The notes under the pieces are model-generated. The model was not told the DNA's origin. It was given only the letters and a program-made list of their open reading frames with translations, and did not search any database. Shown in pieces: positions 40,490 through 58,733 of a stretch of 64,000 nt of DNA. How positions within the stretch are numbered: position 1 is the stretch's first letter; each line of letters starts with the position of its first letter. The position numbers and the translations under genes are program-made. Source of the stretch: Octopus sinensis (lineage: Eukaryota); assembly GCF_006345805.1 (NCBI RefSeq), contig NC_043003.1, positions 18,910,001-18,974,000 of the forward strand, in the 5' to 3' direction.

Positions 40490-41165
40490 TATTTTTTGTA
40501 TTAACAGAATTTTGTCATAACCCTTCAACGTAGCTACATCCAGAAATACATTTATATATTAATAGTTTACAACATTTTTTCCCCCTAAATGATAAGTGTT
40601 ATTTTGGACAAAGGCAACAAACCTTGGTACAGGTGATAGAAGTATAATGAAAGTCTTTGCTAGCTTAAGAAAAGAATAATAATTATTCAAAAGCACACTT
40701 TCTAAAACAATACTTCTTACAAACTCATGGTAAACAATTAAAACAGAAATCTCTTTCAAGGAACTGCATTCTTCCCCAAAAAACATGGCAGTTATCAACT
40801 ATTCTCAATGTAATATGTCCACTTGAACTTGTAACTTACTGGGTGAAACTTGGGCTCATACAAACATTAAGCAGAATCTGAACATTGCAATAATAATAAT
40901 AATAGTTTTGGTGGGAATGTTCAAGAAACAGGCAGGCAAATACAGAACAAAAATCTCAGGATTTACAAATATGCATGACCTACAGAAAATGACATTGCTA
41001 GGCACCACGCACACACATTACAAAGAGCATTTTCAATGAAGGAAGGTATGATAAAAACAAGACAAAACAAAACACTTCAAACATCCAAGGCAAACAGAAT
41101 GCTCTCTGTAGTGCAGTGAAAGCATGCAATAAAAGCAAGACTACTGGGGAAAGTAAAAATAATTA

Positions 41166-41564
41166 TAGGAGTGACTGTGTGGTAAGTAGCTTGCTTATGA
41201 ACCCACATGGTTCTGGGTTCAGTCCCACTGCGTGGATCCTTTGGCAAGTGTCTTCTACTATAGCCTCAGGCCAACCAAAACCTTGTGAGTGGGTTTAGTA
41301 AACGGAAACTGAAAGAAGCCCGTCATATATATGTGTGTATATATATATGTATGTGTTTGTGTGTCTGTGTTTGTTCCCCCCCCCCGAACATCGCTTGACA
41401 ACCGATGCTGGTGTGTTTACATCCCTGTAACTTAGTGGTTTGGCAAAAGAGACCGATAAAATAAGTACTAGGCTTACAAAGAATGAGTCCTGGGGTCGAT
41501 TTGCTTGACTAAATGCGATGCTCCAGCATGGCCACAGTCAAATGACTGAAACAAGTAAAAGAGT
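41166..41564 (+). mobile_element. SINE family A
   Basis: Full consensus. Confidence 0.9.
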
Positions 41565-42251
41565 ATAGTAATGGTTTCAAATTTTGGTACATAACAAGCA
41601 ATTTTAGATGAAAGAGTAAGTCAATTATGTCGACCCTCATCCTAAACTGGTACTTATTTTATCAATTCTCGAAATGATGAAAGGAAAAGTCAACCTCAGC
41701 AGTATTTGAACTCAGAATGTAAAGATCTTGGAAAAAACACCACTAAGTGTTTTGTCCAGTGCAGTAACAATTCTGCCAGCTTGCTATGTTAATAATAATA
41801 ATAATAACAATAATGGTTATTTCTGACCTATGCCTTCTTATTTTGGGAGCCTGGTGTCTTTGATTATATCAACTCCAGTACTTCACTAACTCCCTTCAAA
41901 AATTGAAGGGCAAAACTCGCTTTGACAGTATTTGAATGCAGAACATAAAGGAGGCGTTTCTAATTTAGGCATAAGAGCAACAATTTGTTAGGGGTTAGTC
42001 AATACCATCAATCCTAGTACTTAGTTAGTATTTTATTTCGGTAGTTCAGGAAAGATAAAAGGCGAAGTTGACCCAAGCAGAATTTGAACTCAGAACATAA
42101 GGATCTGGAATGAATTCTGTGTCATCTCTTCCAACACTCTGTCCATCCATCTATTCATTTTCTCCTCTCACTCCTCCCGAGAGAGTCATTTGGGTAGAGT
42201 TCTGAGGCACCTCCTCCTATAGGATCCTTTCAAAGGCAACTGTCATTAGTC

Positions 42252-42669
42252 ATAGGCGTAGGAGTGGCTGTATGGTAAGTAGCTGCTTACGAACCACATG
42301 GTTCCAGGTTCAGTCCCACTGCGTGGCACCTTGGCCAATTGTCTTCTACTATAGCCTCAGGACAACCAAAGCCTTGTGAGTGGATTTGGTCGATGGAAAC
42401 TGAAAGAAACCCATCGTATATATATGTATACATATATATATGTATGTGTGTGTATATGTTTGTGTGTCTGTGCTTGTACCCCCAACATCACTTGACAACC
42501 AATGCTGGTGTGTTTACGTCCCTGTAACTTAGTGGTTCGGCAAAAGAGACCGATAGAATAAGTACTAGGCTTACGAAGAATGAGTCCTGTGGTCAATTTG
42601 CTCAACTAAAGGCGGTGCTCCAGCATGACCACAGTCAAATGACTGAAACAAGTAAAAGAGTAAAAGAGA
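42252..42669 (+). mobile_element. SINE family A
   Basis: Full consensus; the anticodon-like loop reads ttACGaa. Confidence 0.9.
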
Positions 42670-43167
42670 CTCTATGGCTGGATTCCTAGGCATAACCAAC
42701 TGACACTGTGAATATTATCCAGTCACTTTGTTCTTGGTCAACCTCTAAGTCTGCTGTTGGTTGGCTTGACTTTAACAATCTGTTTTGTGATTATCACCTG
42801 CAATATTCTAATTGCACGTCCATAGTACCAGAGCTGTAACTTCTTCATTCGGAGAAGTAGCTATGAACTCTTTAACTATTCTCAATTTGTGCCTATATTA
42901 AATTATTGACAAATATAACTCTTCCTGAATCGCATAATTGGAATTTTTAAAGAGTTGTTTTGTTTTTAGAAATTTAAGCATAATAATCAAAAATATTAAT
43001 ATTTAGTTCCTAACATGGTTATGGCTGTGTGGTAAGTTTGCTTTCCAACCACATGATTCCAGTTTTAGTCTCATTGCGTGACACCGTAAGCAAGTGTCTT
43101 TTACTATAGTCTTGGGCTGAACAAAACTTTGTGAGTGAATTTGGTAGTCAGAAACTGAAAGATGCCC

Positions 43168-43169
43168 TA

Positions 43170-43242
<73 letters not shown>

Positions 43243-43379
43243 TATATTATATCATATATATATATATATAATATATATATACATATATATATATATTAAT
43301 ATATATACATATATATATATAGATATATATATATATACATTATATATATATAATATATATATATATACATATATATTAT

Positions 43380-43449
<70 letters not shown>

Positions 43450-43463
43450 CATACATACATATA
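43168..43463. repeat. (TA)n tract
   Basis: Directly visible; a further pure (TA)n lies at 43799-43864. Confidence 0.95.
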
Positions 43464-43794
43464 TACATTATATAAAAGGGCTTAGTAAAATAAATTACTT
43501 TGCCGCATACTGAACTCATTAGAAATAGCAGCTAAAAACTTTTTTAAGGCTATTTCTAATACTTAAAGAAAATCTCTCTCATATATATGAGAGAGATTTT
43601 CTTTAAGTATTAAAATAGCCTTAAAAAAGTTTTTTAGCTGCTATTTCTAATGAGTTCAGTATGCGGCAAAGTAATTTATTTTACTAAGCCCTTTATATAA
43701 TGTAATAATTTGAATTCGCCTTGAATGGTCCCTTTGCATACTGAACACTTGGTGAAATTGATTAATAATTAATTAATTTTGCCCTCAATTGTTG

Positions 43795-43800
<6 letters not shown>
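43464..43800 (+). mobile_element. Truncated fold-back relative of the 51790-52743 element
   Basis: 43464-43704 is a near-perfect palindrome; 43679-43800 matches the terminal direct repeat of the 52-kb element; (TA)n on both sides. Confidence 0.85.
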
Positions 43801-43862
<62 letters not shown>

Positions 43863-43866
<4 letters not shown>

Positions 43867-44266
43867 CGTAGAAGTGGCTGTGTGGTAAGTAGCTTGCTTA
43901 TGAACCACATGGTTCCAGGTTCAGTCCCACTGCGTGGCACCTTGGCCAAGTGTCTTCTACTATAGCCTCAAGCCGACCAAAGCCTTGTGAGTGGATTTGG
44001 TAGATGGAAACTGAAAAAAGCCCATCATATATATGTATATATATATATCTGTGTGTGTATACATTTGTGTGTCTGTTTGTTCCCCCAACATTGCTTGACA
44101 ACCAATGCTGGTTTGTTTACATCCCCATAACTTAGCGGTTCAGCAAAAGAGACCGATAGAATATGTACTAGGCTTACAAAGAATAAGTCCTGGGGTCGAT
44201 TTGCTCAACTAAAGGTGGTGCTCCAGCATGGCCGCAGTCAAATGACTGAAACAAGTAAAAGAGCAA
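43863..44266 (+). mobile_element. SINE family A
   Basis: Full consensus. Confidence 0.9.
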
Positions 44267-50194: not shown

Positions 50195-50760
50195 ATCACC
50201 CAACCAGATGCAGTCATTGTACACTACCTTTGTTCACCCAACTATGAACAGTTCTTATTTCTGCATTGTCACTGTTCACCCAACTATGGACAGTCCTTAA
50301 TTCTACATTGTCACTGTTCATCCAACTATGAACAGTCCATAATATACATTACCTCTAATCACCCAACCATGAACAGTTCTTAATTCTACATTGTCACTGT
50401 TCACCCAACTATGAACAGTCCTTAATTCTACATTACACCTGTTCACCCAACCATGAACAGTCCTTAATTCTACATTGTTACTCTTCACCCAATTATGGAC
50501 TGTCCTAAATTCTACATTGTTACTGTTCACCCAACTATGAACAGTCTTCAATTCTACATTGCCTCTGTTCATCCAACTATGGACAGTACATAATTCTACA
50601 TTGTCTCTGTTGACCAAGCTGTGAACAATTCTAAATTCTATATTACTTTAATTCACCCAGCTACCAATAACTTTCATCAATACCATTACCTCAACTGACC
50701 CATCAATGGACAGCTCTTAATTCTGTATTGCTTCAGTCAACCCAACTGTGAACAATCCTG
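50195..50760. repeat. 42-bp minisatellite, ~13 units
   Basis: Unit tcacccaactatgaacagtccttaattctacattgtcactgt; 14-aa periodicity in the ORF track. Confidence 0.92.
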
Positions 50761-54318: not shown

Positions 54319-54781
54319 GTTTATGTGTGGGAACATTTAATTATGCTTGTATGTATCTTTTACCATTTACTTGTTTCAGTCATTTGACTGTGGCCATGCT
54401 GGGGCACCACCCTGAACAATTTTTGGTCAAATGAATCGATTAAAGTACTCATGTTTTTTTTAAGCTCGGTACTTATTCTATCAGTCTCTTTTGCTGAACT
54501 GCTAAGTTACAGGGATGTAAATATACCAACATCAGTTGTCAAGTGGTCGTAGTAGGGGTCAAACACAGATACATAATCACACATATATTCTTTTACTTGA
54601 CTGTGGCCATGCTGGAGCACCACCTTTAGTTGAGCAAATCGACCCTAGGACTTATTCTTTGTAAGCCTAGTACTTATTCTATTGGACTCTTTTTGCCGAA
54701 CTGCTAAGTTACAGGGACATAAACACACTAACATCAGTTGTCAAGCGATGGTGAGGGGACAAACACAGACACAAAAAACAA

Positions 54782-54843
<62 letters not shown>

Positions 54844-54997
54844 CATATATATATAGAACAAGGCTTCTTTCAGTTTCCATCTACCAAATCTACTCACAAG
54901 GCTTTGGTTGGCCCAAGGCTATAGTACAAGACACTTGCCCAAGGTGCCACGCAGTGGGACTGAACCTGGAACCATGTGGTTGGGAAGCAAGCTTCTT

Positions 54998-55459
54998 TAT
55001 TTCAGTACATTTGCCATAAAGGCAGTACATAGAGTAAAGTAGCTTTGCAGGCTGGACAAGGACATTAATGAAATGAATGGTAATGAAAGAAAGATGATAA
55101 GGATGGGAGAAGACAAAAAGCGCCTGCTTCTCTAAAACATTGTTCTTTAAAACCAATCACAAAACGAGGTACAACTTTTACAACTTTTCAATTTTTGGAC
55201 TTAACAGTCCATTACAAACAACAACATAGTTCAATAATTACATATAATATAAATACAATACACAAAGCCCCTCCTCCCAGACCTGGCTTACACTTACCTT
55301 AGGAATGCGCCAGCTCTAGGTCGGGGCCCCTCAAGTTGTATCTAAACATGTCCTTTGAGGTGTTCATTACCCTGACCATAGCAACATCCGATATGATCTT
55401 CGTAGTCACCTGCGAAGGCCACTCCTCATCCCCCATCCAGGGCATGGGCTCCTCCCTCC
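54998..55459 (-). mobile_element. 5'-truncated retroelement, diverged sibling of 55476-57553
   Basis: 16-bp TSD gggaagcaagcttctt (54982-54997, 55460-55475); ORF end ..EPMPWMGDEEWPSQVTTKII..FRYNLRGPDLELAHS* (stop 55299-55301); ends in AATAAA at the junction. Confidence 0.8.
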
Positions 55460-55475
55460 GGGAAGCAAGCTTCTT

Positions 55476-57553
55476 TATTTTATCAAATTAGCCATGGAGA
55501 CCTTACACTTACATAAAAATCAACAAGTCAATCAAACATAAAAAATACACTATCACTTTTCCCTTCCTCCTCTTTCCGGACCTCCAGTCAAATATCTAGC
55601 TGCCTGTAGAGCAGACCACGTTGACAGCTGGGGAGTTCAGAAAGAAAGCGAAGTGCCTATTATCAAATGTTTGTGTCACACAGTGCCACAATTTATAACT
55701 CACCCTCAAAATAACTTGTGCCCGCATCCTCTGCCATCCTCCACGCCTCTTTCAAAGCCGAATCGAGTTCCGTGTCAGCATTGCCCAGGTACAAGCGATA
55801 TTCCTCATTGAGCCCCTTCAGCCCAAACGTCACGTCAAACGTTATGGCCTCCACAGCTATCTGAGAAGGCTATTCGGGGTCCTGTGTGAAGGCTAAAGGT
55901 GCTCCCTTATGGTGCTTTTCCATCTCCTTTTCAATTTCTCCGCCTTTATAGAAGAAGATCAATACATCATCTTCCTCTGGGGGCGGGATACCCAATTATT
56001 TCATTGGTGGCACAGTTCCCACCAACGGTGTTTCTTCTCCTGCCAGTAGCACAACCCCAACCGACGTTATTCCGGGACATTCCGGTACTATGTCCCGTTT
56101 CTCTTCCTCTTCCTCTTTTTTTCTTTTCAACAGAGGGAGGGTGCGTCTCCTCCGTGGCCGGAAGATTCGCCTTCATTCCTCATCCCTAGGATCATTCGGT
56201 GAGCACCCATTGTTGCTCACCTTCTTCCTCTTACGGCCCCTGTTTGAGGAGTCCTCTGCTTCCTCGGCCGCCTTCATTCCCTCTTCTACAGGGGTCTCAC
56301 TCAACTGCTCCGGGACCTTATTTTGTTCCCGGGGACAGTTTTTCTTTATATGGCCAGACTCCAGGCACCGATGACACCTGGGGGGGAAACCCTCAAGTAT
56401 CACTGGGTACCTGCACCCAGCCATTTAAAAAAAATCTGGAAAAACCAGATTGGCTGATTGGGTCCAAAGGGTCAAAACAGCTTTTGACCCAACCCAATCA
56501 GCCACAGGAAGAACTTTCACATTAAGAAGCTTGGTCCCGCTGCCACCCAGACCCCGGCGGATAGTCTCCTCTATCCACTTGGGTTTTATCCCGGGTGGCA
56601 ACCCGCAGACCTAAGCTTTCATCAACCTCTTTCCATAATACATGGGAAGGAACAAAATTTCCTCACCCTCCAAGGGTTGACTAGCAAATTTGTGAGCCTC
56701 TTCAGGGGTATCAAATAGCAACCAAACCGTTGCATATCTGAAACCCCTGGAAATTAATTTAATTGTTGGCAAATACTCTGCCAACTTCTTTTCAATTGCC
56801 GTCTTTTCGAATAGGGCGATGGTGTTGAGTGACTTGGAGTAGGTTCTCAACACCACTGTCCTATCTTCATGGTCTTTCAACCACTTTTTAGGCGGTATAA
56901 TCTCCCACTCCAAAATTTTGTCTTTTTTCATTGCCATGTTTCTTTTTTTTTTTTTTGAAATATATTCAAAATAAAACTTAAAAAGCGAGAAGAAAAAAGA
57001 AATCAAAAGAAAGTCACAATAAACAAAAAGGAGAAAGTCAAATAAAGTTTAGAAGAAAGTCAATAGCTCAGGAACACAGCAAAAAAATCTTCCGGCCATT
57101 TGGTACTCCCGGCCTAGGTTGAACCCGGAATGCCACAACTGGAACACAACTTCCACAAAAATTGATATACAAATTGTTCAATCTTCGGAGGCAAAACACT
57201 CCCCCAAACAGCAGTTCTCACAATTATTAAAGTTCTTCAAAAGGCACAATACAAGCAATAATTCTCATAATTAAGTGAGAAAAACATAAACCGAAGACGA
57301 ATACATCCCCAAACAAAAATTCTCACAATTCAGTGAGAAAAATTATTTGCCCCATGTCGGCAGAACTAGAATTCTGAATCCAGTAGGACTTCCTGCCTGT
57401 ACAAAAACAATTCTCAACAAAAATTCCCACTGGACCCAAAAAACAGAATCTTACCTTACAATGGAGCTTCAAAATTTTTCAATTCGAGACGGCTTCAAAA
57501 GCATATCTCACCTCTTTGGTGCCGAACACCACAATTATTCGCACATACGCAGT
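55476..57553 (-). mobile_element. ~2.1-kb ORF1-only non-LTR element (Tx1/L1-like ORF1)
   Basis: 15-bp TSD (55461-55475, 57554-57568), ~615-nt 5' UTR, single disrupted ORF, ~215-nt 3' UTR ending AATAAA; no EN or RT sequence seen. Confidence 0.8.
55693..56937 (-). pseudogene. Disrupted gag-like ORF1: RRM-like N-terminus, CCHC knuckle, unknown C-terminal domain
   Basis: MAMKKDK..VWLLFDTPEEA..*VCGLPPGI.., CHRCLESGHIKKNC (56335-56376); in-frame stops at ~56612, ~56426 and ~55871, plus frameshifts between 56180 and 55990. Confidence 0.8.
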
Positions 57554-57606
57554 GGAAGCAAGCTTCTTACCACACAGCCACCCCTGCACCTATATACATA
57601 CAAGTG

Positions 57607-57820
57607 AAGGTGGCAAGCTGGCAGAAACGTTAGAATGCTGGGCAAAATGCTTAGTGGTATTTCATCTGTCTTTACATTCTGAGTTCAAATTCCGCCTAGG
57701 TTGACTTTGCCTTTCATCCTTTCAGAGTCGATAAATTAAGTATCAGTTGCATACTGGGGTCAATCTAATCGACTGGCCTCCCTCCCCAAATATTTTGGGC
57801 CTTCTGCCTAGAGTAGAAAA
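57607..57820 (+). mobile_element. SINE family B
   Basis: Family consensus. Confidence 0.85.
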
Positions 57821-58733
57821 GTATATACATACAAGTGTCTTTCAGTTTCCATCAACCAAATTCACTCAGAAGTCTTTGGTCAACCTGAGGCTACAGTAGA
57901 AGACACACACCTGCCCAAGGTACCAGACAGTGAGACTGAACCTGGAGCCATGTGGTTGGGAAGCAAGCTTCTTACCACACAGCCAGTTTCTCCCTTTATG
58001 GTATGTGTATATTTCTGAAAGTGCTTGCATGTCTGTGTGTGTGATTGCCTCTGGTACCAAAATACATTGTCACCAAAACATATTGAATGTCCAATCGGCC
58101 ATACCAAATCATCACCATCCTAACATCTATATCCGATCCTCTCATTCCAACCAGACCATCTGTGGAGTTAATTTGGTTAAGGAATTTTTATGGCAGAGGC
58201 CTTTGAAGTTTTGTTGACGTTAAATGAAACGACATTGCTTTCACTGAAGGTCTGATAGGTATAAACCTTTGGTGACTGGCATATGGGTGCTAGTTTCAAG
58301 TAGCTCTGCTCTATAGAAGCTATACCTGCTTGTGATTACTGAGGAAGGCGAGAAAATCAAGGTGATTGCTAGTAAGGAGTTTCGTTCCTGTTGGTATGTG
58401 GAACAAGAATGTGGTCAGACAAATGGATCTTTTTGGAGACAAGACACATTGTAGTGGGTCCCCTTAGATTGGAATAAATTTCTGGAGAGAGAGAGAGAGA
58501 CAGAGAGACAGAGAGAAAGAGAGACAGAGACAGAGACAGAGAAAGAGGTGGCAATTCACAGGCAGAGTCCACCTCAGTTTCTTCTAATTATTTCAGAGAA
58601 ATAGTCAAATGATTATTTTCTTAAAGTCATTTATATATTCTTCAACTACATCACAAACTAAATCCACTCTTTAGAGACAATAACATCAGAAGATGATGCG
58701 AAAAAAAGGATTTTGATCTATTTAATGTTTTCC

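Follow-up and report, generated by a model that had tools for sequence, protein, structure and literature searches.

Does a SINE that is broken within its tRNA-like head and accompanied by three copies of one target word record two independent retroelement insertions or one, and is that head a specific landing site? The question is raised by a locus of Octopus sinensis at which the word GGAAGCAAGCTTCTT occurs exactly at 54983, 55461 and 57554 of the window (the whole stretch of 64,000 nucleotides that was analysed) and a fourth time at 57959, in an adjacent intact SINE copy. The window holds 21 matches to the target word with three or fewer mismatches, compared with 1.8 expected from shuffling. 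On the minus strand the SINE head stops at 57569 (..TGTGTGGT) and the SINE body picks up again at 54997. The span between the outer target words is 2,556 bp, an element of ~2.6 kb. The outer duplication is 15 bp and the middle target copy 16 bp (55460-55475). The three words and the split SINE of the first-pass annotation are real. The 3' junction that it described as common to both inserts (57553-55476 and 55459-54998) is also present, AAATA standing at the end of each immediately before the target word. Beyond the last ~35 nt, DNA similarity between the two inserts is insignificant (best BLASTN E 0.4; their common start is repeat D8). The features of the locus are as follows.

57569..57590, minus strand: host SINE head, 5' portion, containing an A-box-like word at 57569-57580 (from the sequence; the same head precedes full-length copies elsewhere; box read by eye against a consensus)
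57554..57568, minus strand: upstream copy of the 15-bp target-site duplication (host-specific variants are common to the outer copies at loci L122 and L136)
56938..57553, minus strand: 5' UTR of the composite, 616 bp, with short internal repeats at 58 and ~105 nt spacing (D7, D12, D13; same 5' end at 30 loci)
55693..56937, minus strand: ORF1, ~420 codons, broken here by stops and frame changes, with a CCHC knuckle near 56330-56380 (tblastn, profile and model)
55476..55692, minus strand: 3' UTR of the ORF1-only unit, ~100 nt or more shorter than in the stand-alone parent family (short tail in 15/15 composites, long tail in 5/5 parent copies)
55460..55475, minus strand: internal 16-bp target copy, a fossil duplication within the composite (same junction in 14/19 fetched regions and 15/22 exact pattern matches)
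54998..55459, minus strand: 3' stub (462 bp) of a sister ORF1-only family, which provides the working 3' end; a 4-bp hairpin is predicted at 55012-55024 (sequence match)
54983..54997, minus strand: downstream copy of the 15-bp target-site duplication (sequence)
54857..54982, minus strand: host SINE body, with a B-box-like word at 54956-54966 (80-91% to better window copies)

The host SINE is present ~30 times in the window, as 33 BLAST pieces, and its downstream ~350 bp are a high-copy repeat. The A and B boxes of its head were read by eye against a consensus. Neither ARAGORN nor Rfam matched the SINE head as a tRNA at normal settings, and no Rfam tRNA match was found for the SINE copies in 41000-44200. 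A tRNA origin of the head is weakly supported: under relaxed ARAGORN settings, run without a control, three of three near-consensus heads were called as tRNA, with discordant isotypes. The stretch at 54360-54780 is probably the 3' half of the host SINE past a (TA)n tract, with a partial duplication at ~200-bp spacing (repeats D3, D6 and D10). Just upstream of the element lie a second SINE-like repeat (57606-57830) and the intact copy of the target SINE (57838-57985), and a tandem array of about ten 42-bp units occupies 50231-50644.

A single composite insertion

The locus is one insertion of a composite element, not two. When the final 225 bases of the long insert were searched against the genome, 79 candidates resulted, of which the best 40 were scored and 30 fetched. 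Stub sequence adjoins the 3' end of the long insert in 29 of these 30 best loci (the window copy included); 17 of the 29 have the middle target copy as here, 11 are deletion derivatives without it and one is inverted. The remaining locus, L027, is a copy of the parent family with a longer tail. Among 27 longer regions, seven gave a single alignment over 1-2556 at 88-93% and one more over 1-2531. The middle junction was the same in 14 of the 19 regions L122-L140, absent in three and unmatched by the script in two. Searched as an exact pattern, the 3' end of the long insert had 22 matches: 15 with the shortened tail, every one followed by the stub; five with the long parent tail, leading directly into SINE body (four) or an off-target site (one); and two belonging to other families. 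Host-specific changes at L122 are common to the two outer target copies and absent from the middle one, and at L136 such changes are likewise common to both outer copies. Because the unit recurs and the outer copies share host-specific changes, the outer pair is the duplication and the middle copy is internal.

The first-pass annotation had read the middle copy as the trace of a second, independent insertion and had named as the alternative that it is an internal part of one larger element. That alternative was looked at and is what was found, with the same junction at many loci. Two insertions into this very SINE copy would account for the three target words, the 16- and 15-bp duplications and the two similar 3' ends; true tandem arrays of different families occur elsewhere, and a stand-alone stub exists. 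They are nevertheless very unlikely, because many loci, on different contigs, have exactly this stub start and middle junction and a short-tailed long unit lacking the stub occurs in 0 of 15 cases. The stand-alone stub (L051) has the same 5' junction, so stub-only alleles exist, perhaps as founder, by truncation at the internal copy or by recombination. That the insertion here was a single step is deduced from sibling copies. More generally, a target word lying between two others can be a fossil enclosed in a single element.

Coding content of the composite element

ORF1 of the window element matches the intact sibling ORF1 of L135 over residues 1-422 at 77% (tblastn), and the frame is open in siblings L019 and L135. 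The zf-CCHC profile on the window ORF1 gave E 0.002, which is below the cut-off. A structural model (29-sequence alignment, AlphaFold2, pLDDT 82) matches tandem RRM proteins at E ~1e-4 with low TM scores of 0.2-0.3 and ends in a CCHC knuckle; two RRMs plus CCHC are the predicted content of ORF1. The ORF1 profile matched a fish ORF1 with ZCCHC3-type domains (probability 81%, E 1e-5), and no direct match to PF23057 or PF23058 was obtained. A tblastn match to ORF2 or reverse transcriptase (RT) was absent from the window element and from 26 of 27 fetched regions, the lone match lying at the edge of L123, outside the element. The stub resembles the ORF1 end and 3' UTR of the sister ORF1-only families L093, L109, L140 and L149 at 72-77% DNA identity. 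The possibility that it is the end of an ORF2 was ruled out, since its matches are to sister-family ORF1 ends and not to ORF2. Searches of the 5' ends found no ribozyme or known RNA family, Rfam giving only low-complexity matches below gathering scores. The window element is HAL1-like, in that it carries ORF1 only, has full 5' and 3' ends and is present as many dispersed copies with duplications. It departs from mammalian HAL1, which is defined by an ORF1 of the mammalian L1 type, since its ORF1 is RRM plus CCHC and homologous to that of the local autonomous family.

Target specificity across the genome

Across the genome, hundreds of related elements sit at a single SINE-head nucleotide, and sequence-specific insertion there is confirmed. 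The queries used for this test contained no SINE flank, and only the best 40 candidates of each search were scored, which biases the counts to well-preserved copies. In the window family, this nucleotide is where 42 of 46 distinct copies end, with the SINE body continuing in 38 of the 42; four copies are off target, and four of 50 candidate loci lacked the 3' end. A young autonomous family ends at the target in 29 of 30 copies, the thirtieth being one base off (SINE body continuing in 27/29), and older autonomous copies do so in 30 of 30 (SINE body in 26/30). The same word test was passed by 83 of 127,968 window positions. The specificity for the SINE head that had been proposed from this one locus is borne out in all three groups. 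Their shares of 42/46, 29/30 and 30/30 also lie above the >20% of flanks taken as preference for a multicopy target in the available text of PMC4494074. Random flanks at other copies, which would have spoken against it, are not the rule in the window family, 42 of its 46 copies being at the target. Of the proposed endonuclease specific for the head, the targeting to a single base stands and the enzyme is missing from the window element, which encodes none.

A 35-letter junction pattern had 196 exact matches in the genome, the matching intact pattern 20,076 and the reversed controls 0, and occupancy is ~1% among near-consensus SINE heads. The first 30 junction loci listed comprise many distinct families. 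Copies truncated at the 5' end keep the SINE head upstream (L023, L049 and L051; 10 of 30 junction loci), and the off-target copies L010, L013 and L166 have duplications of their own starting AAG(A/T)AG. Tandem arrays are also present, at L121, L122, L123 and L140, and reach four units at L121.

A family of tRNA genes might be the real target and the SINE a bystander, since the site lies within a tRNA-like head and, in the accessible parts of PMC3706591 and PMC8869645, Dewa and Dada are described as hitting tRNA loci. This is unlikely, because the flanks run on into SINE body (38/42, 27/29 and 26/30) and a default ARAGORN run over loci L001-L279 called no tRNA gene; a tRNA gene as the ancestral target is possible. 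Joint movement of SINE and insert by hitchhiking or segmental duplication, with no targeting, would place SINE on both sides as seen at nearly all copies, but it is effectively excluded because element ends in the window family are 95.0% alike and SINE flanks 79.1% (99.3% and 89.6% in the young autonomous family), the sequence past the head differs at every locus, truncated copies retain the head, many unrelated families occupy the same site and off-target copies have their own duplications. In the older autonomous set the element ends (82.6%) are not more alike than the flanks (85.5%).

Other arrangements were observed as well. At loci L105, L108 and L115 the same site is used by another group of short ORF1-type elements, which is more distantly related, and the ORF1 pieces of L105 look closer to the autonomous ORF1. 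The four related ORF1-only units at L121 (G000:C11:43935000-43944999) form a head-to-tail array within one SINE; two of these units share their alignment pattern and are spaced 2,096 bp apart. One copy at L016/L114 (G000:C2:153055000-153058000) has an inverted 5' part, as twin priming would give.

An autonomous family at the same site

The end of an ORF2 was found at one junction locus. The full element at L141 is 5.45 kb long and has an ORF1 with zf-CCHC and an ORF2 with Exo_endo_phos (apurinic endonuclease, APE), RVT_1 and zf-RVT (PF03372 1e-12, PF00078 1e-28 and PF13966 7e-9). Both frames are open at L189 (G000:C8:54102350-54108450), with ORF1 of 467 aa and ORF2 of 1130 aa; an ORF1-only element from a different family lies immediately downstream of this copy. 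Together they supply the autonomous element with APE, RT and the same 3' flank that had been suggested as a check on the targeting. The best 40 listed copies of this young family are 99-100% identical over the last 356 bases, and the family is ~98% alike over its full length (copies 98-99% alike).

L141 and L189 belong to the L1/Tx1 group, their ORF2 having an N-terminal APE, RT and a C-terminal zinc motif. The best solved relative of ORF2 is human L1 ORF2p (E 3e-65, versus 1e-19 for R2). A Tx1-type ORF1 is described in the available text of PMC5203782 as type I RRM plus CCHC, not Transposase_22, and zf-CCHC together with the RRM-like model agrees with this. No named Tx1 reference occurred among the 120 listed matches or in the clusters examined, and Argonauta, at 63%, was the best species-named protein relative among the matches listed. 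The domain plan and targeting fit those of Tx1-clade site-specific LINEs, as far as these are set out in the accessible portions of PMC5203782 and PMC4494074.

ORF1 of L189 is homologous to that of the composite family (28%, E 2e-21). Autonomous and ORF1-only families have in common the target and the last ~35 nt (hairpin plus GAAATA). The 4-bp 3' hairpin is predicted with changing pairs in most of 19 ends, folded family by family and without a shuffled control. From the shared target and 3' end, the autonomous lineage likely supplies the copying enzyme to the ORF1-only elements. At L141:3420-3470 and in sibling copies, target-like words flank a short inverted repeat at the 5' end of the young family, with no Rfam match. 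The start of another APE-type ORF2 (44% to L189) was observed at L123:5-454, near a tandem pair of ORF1-only elements.

Choice between target variants

The target word occurs with A or T at its fourth base. AAGTAG was found in 93 of the first 100 intact sites listed, that list coming from one region. Whether SINE copies with the variant AAGTAG..TACC are avoided had been posed earlier as a check; they are not, AAGTAG standing in 75 of the 100 occupied exact sites listed first. Among the 42 target copies of the window family, base 4 is A in 34 and T in seven. One clade (99/95) consists of six copies, every one AAGT-type, and among the remaining 36 target copies A stands at this base in 34; the AAGT subfamily is the younger (97.5% versus 95.1%). 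Of the autonomous copies, 10 AAGA-type rows lie inside one clade of 12 rows, and 29 of the other 30 rows are AAGT-type. The variant used follows element lineage, even in elements without an endonuclease. The AAGAAG-type autonomous clade is likely the helper lineage of the composite. End branches are 0.03-0.09 in AAGAAG autonomous copies versus 0.01-0.03 in most composite copies, different sequences being compared.

At the 5' junction of full-length young-family copies in hosts reading ..TTA.., ..TAACC was found in seven of eight, and an extra T was found in eight of 20 young-family copies; because of this, part of the upstream 'duplication' is often templated by element RNA. In a separate observation, the 5' junctions of L080-L089 belong to an AAGTAG-type subfamily whose 5' end bears a further target-like remnant, ~10 nt long.

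Variant choice could be set by successive helper endonucleases only, RNA-target pairing having no part, an alternative that concerns the mechanism and not the identity of the element. In its favour, the variants sort with lineage among the autonomous elements too, the window family has a younger AAGT subfamily, and specificity set by the endonuclease is the textbook view (as given in the available text of PMC4494074). Against this, a subfamily that lacks an endonuclease and is only ~5% apart changes cleanly to the other variant, A-type preference exists despite the dominance of AAGT at intact exact sites (93 of the first 100 listed), and ..TAACC in seven of eight young copies indicates that element RNA has target-like sequence, at least at its 5' end. 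We give endonuclease succession an even chance; it accounts for the pattern about equally well as RNA pairing does.

Proposed mechanism

It is highly probable that the 2,556 bp are one composite ORF1-only retroelement at the SINE-head nucleotide usual for its relatives, likely copied in a single step by the APE and RT of an autonomous L1/Tx1-like family. The helper APE would nick the bottom strand where the A-box-like word meets the duplication (TCTT/AC), and reverse transcription would be primed at the last base of the element (target-primed reverse transcription). A second cut 15-16 nt downstream would give the duplication. Each insertion would regenerate the target, and tandem arrays could therefore form. 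The composite would have a single origin, in an ancestral source copy that held a full ORF1-only element in tandem with a 462-bp sister stub, transcription reading through the first 3' end into the second; the tail deletion could have come before or after this fusion.

The element end and the target together spell AATAAA at the junction, and the junctions listed have no variable poly(A). A transcript might end just inside the downstream target, keep ~15 target bases and pair with the nicked strand, a step that we judge slightly on the doubtful side. Such RNA-target pairing would explain the tail-less exact junction. A joint reading, more tentative still, is that of a long-lived guild of L1/Tx1-like elements and their ORF1-only dependants in one base of the commonest SINE, in which each lineage would preserve, by way of its RNA, the SINE subfamily of its origin: the junction would make the poly(A) signal, ~15 nt of host target would be kept in the RNA and would guide the next priming, and targeting, programmed in part by RNA, would be handed down from the source locus.

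Novelty and implications

The finding is larger than the first reading and simpler at the locus: a single composite insertion within a single-base SINE-targeting system. Site-specific LINEs are already known, and the SINE head as target appears to be the new aspect. The literature search found no SINE-head-specific Tx1/L1 element, no ORF1-only Tx1 derivatives, no site-specific LINEs in cephalopods, no lineage-bound choice between SINE subfamilies and no swarm of ORF1-only dependants; Repbase, the O. vulgaris library, supplements and subscription papers may hold such families. With a young family that includes one copy with both frames open, the roles of endonuclease and RNA pairing in target choice are directly testable, because endonuclease-less subfamilies switch variant. 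For cephalopod transgenesis, the system could be turned into a tool that integrates at a single base and has at least 20,000 repeat copies to land in. Its effect on SINE activity is probably small, because only ~1% of near-consensus heads are occupied.

Comparison with known systems

Targets reported for the Tx1 clade in the accessible portions of PMC4494074 and PMC3706591 include Tx1D (for Tx1L), U2 (Keno), microsatellites (Kibi and Koshi), tRNA-Leu spacers (Dewa) and Mariner-N4_AMi (Tx1-Mar). The octopus elements share with this clade an ORF2 with APE, RT and a C-terminal zinc motif, an ORF1 with RRM and CCHC, one multicopy target, short duplications, tandem insertion and the use of another transposon as landing site. 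They differ in that the target is one nucleotide of a tRNA-like SINE head present in tens of thousands of copies and that variant choice follows lineage. Tx1-Mar, as presented in the available text of PMC4494074, has a regional preference for two regions, whereas 91-100% of copies of the octopus elements are at one base. For O. vulgaris, a repeat library with 13 recently active L1-Tx1 families has been reported, and the word 'target' is absent from the main text as available (PMC13282606).

The DNA transposon Dada resembles the octopus elements in inserting in or beside the pol III A box. Dada elements, however, hit real tRNA genes and not SINEs, and the available text of PMC8869645 does not contain the word 'SINE'. 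R1Bm is cited in the accessible part of PMC7265360 as needing downstream target sequence for accuracy, and for R1Bm and SART1Bm, as here, a target-like 3' end of the RNA is proposed to anneal to the nicked strand. Unlike the octopus elements, these belong to the R1 clade and have rDNA or telomere targets, and the octopus pairing would follow from genomic patterns alone.

HAL1 is described in the available portion of PMC5753468 as a non-autonomous L1 derivative that encodes ORF1p only. The octopus families are similar in having a 5' UTR, ORF1 and a 3' tail without ORF2 and in comprising several independent families. They are unlike HAL1 in their RRM and CCHC ORF1 in place of Transposase_22, in their site specificity, in lacking variable poly(A) at the junction and, for the family in the window, in being a tandem fusion with a fossil target site. 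The crocodilian SINEU elements and Tx1-Mar, in the account that PMC4494074 makes available, offer a parallel in which non-autonomous elements share the target preference of their helper and insert sequentially in tandem. SINEU elements are, however, non-coding and have snRNA heads; the tandem SINEU-3B was judged there not to be a family, whereas the octopus tandem became a mobile family.
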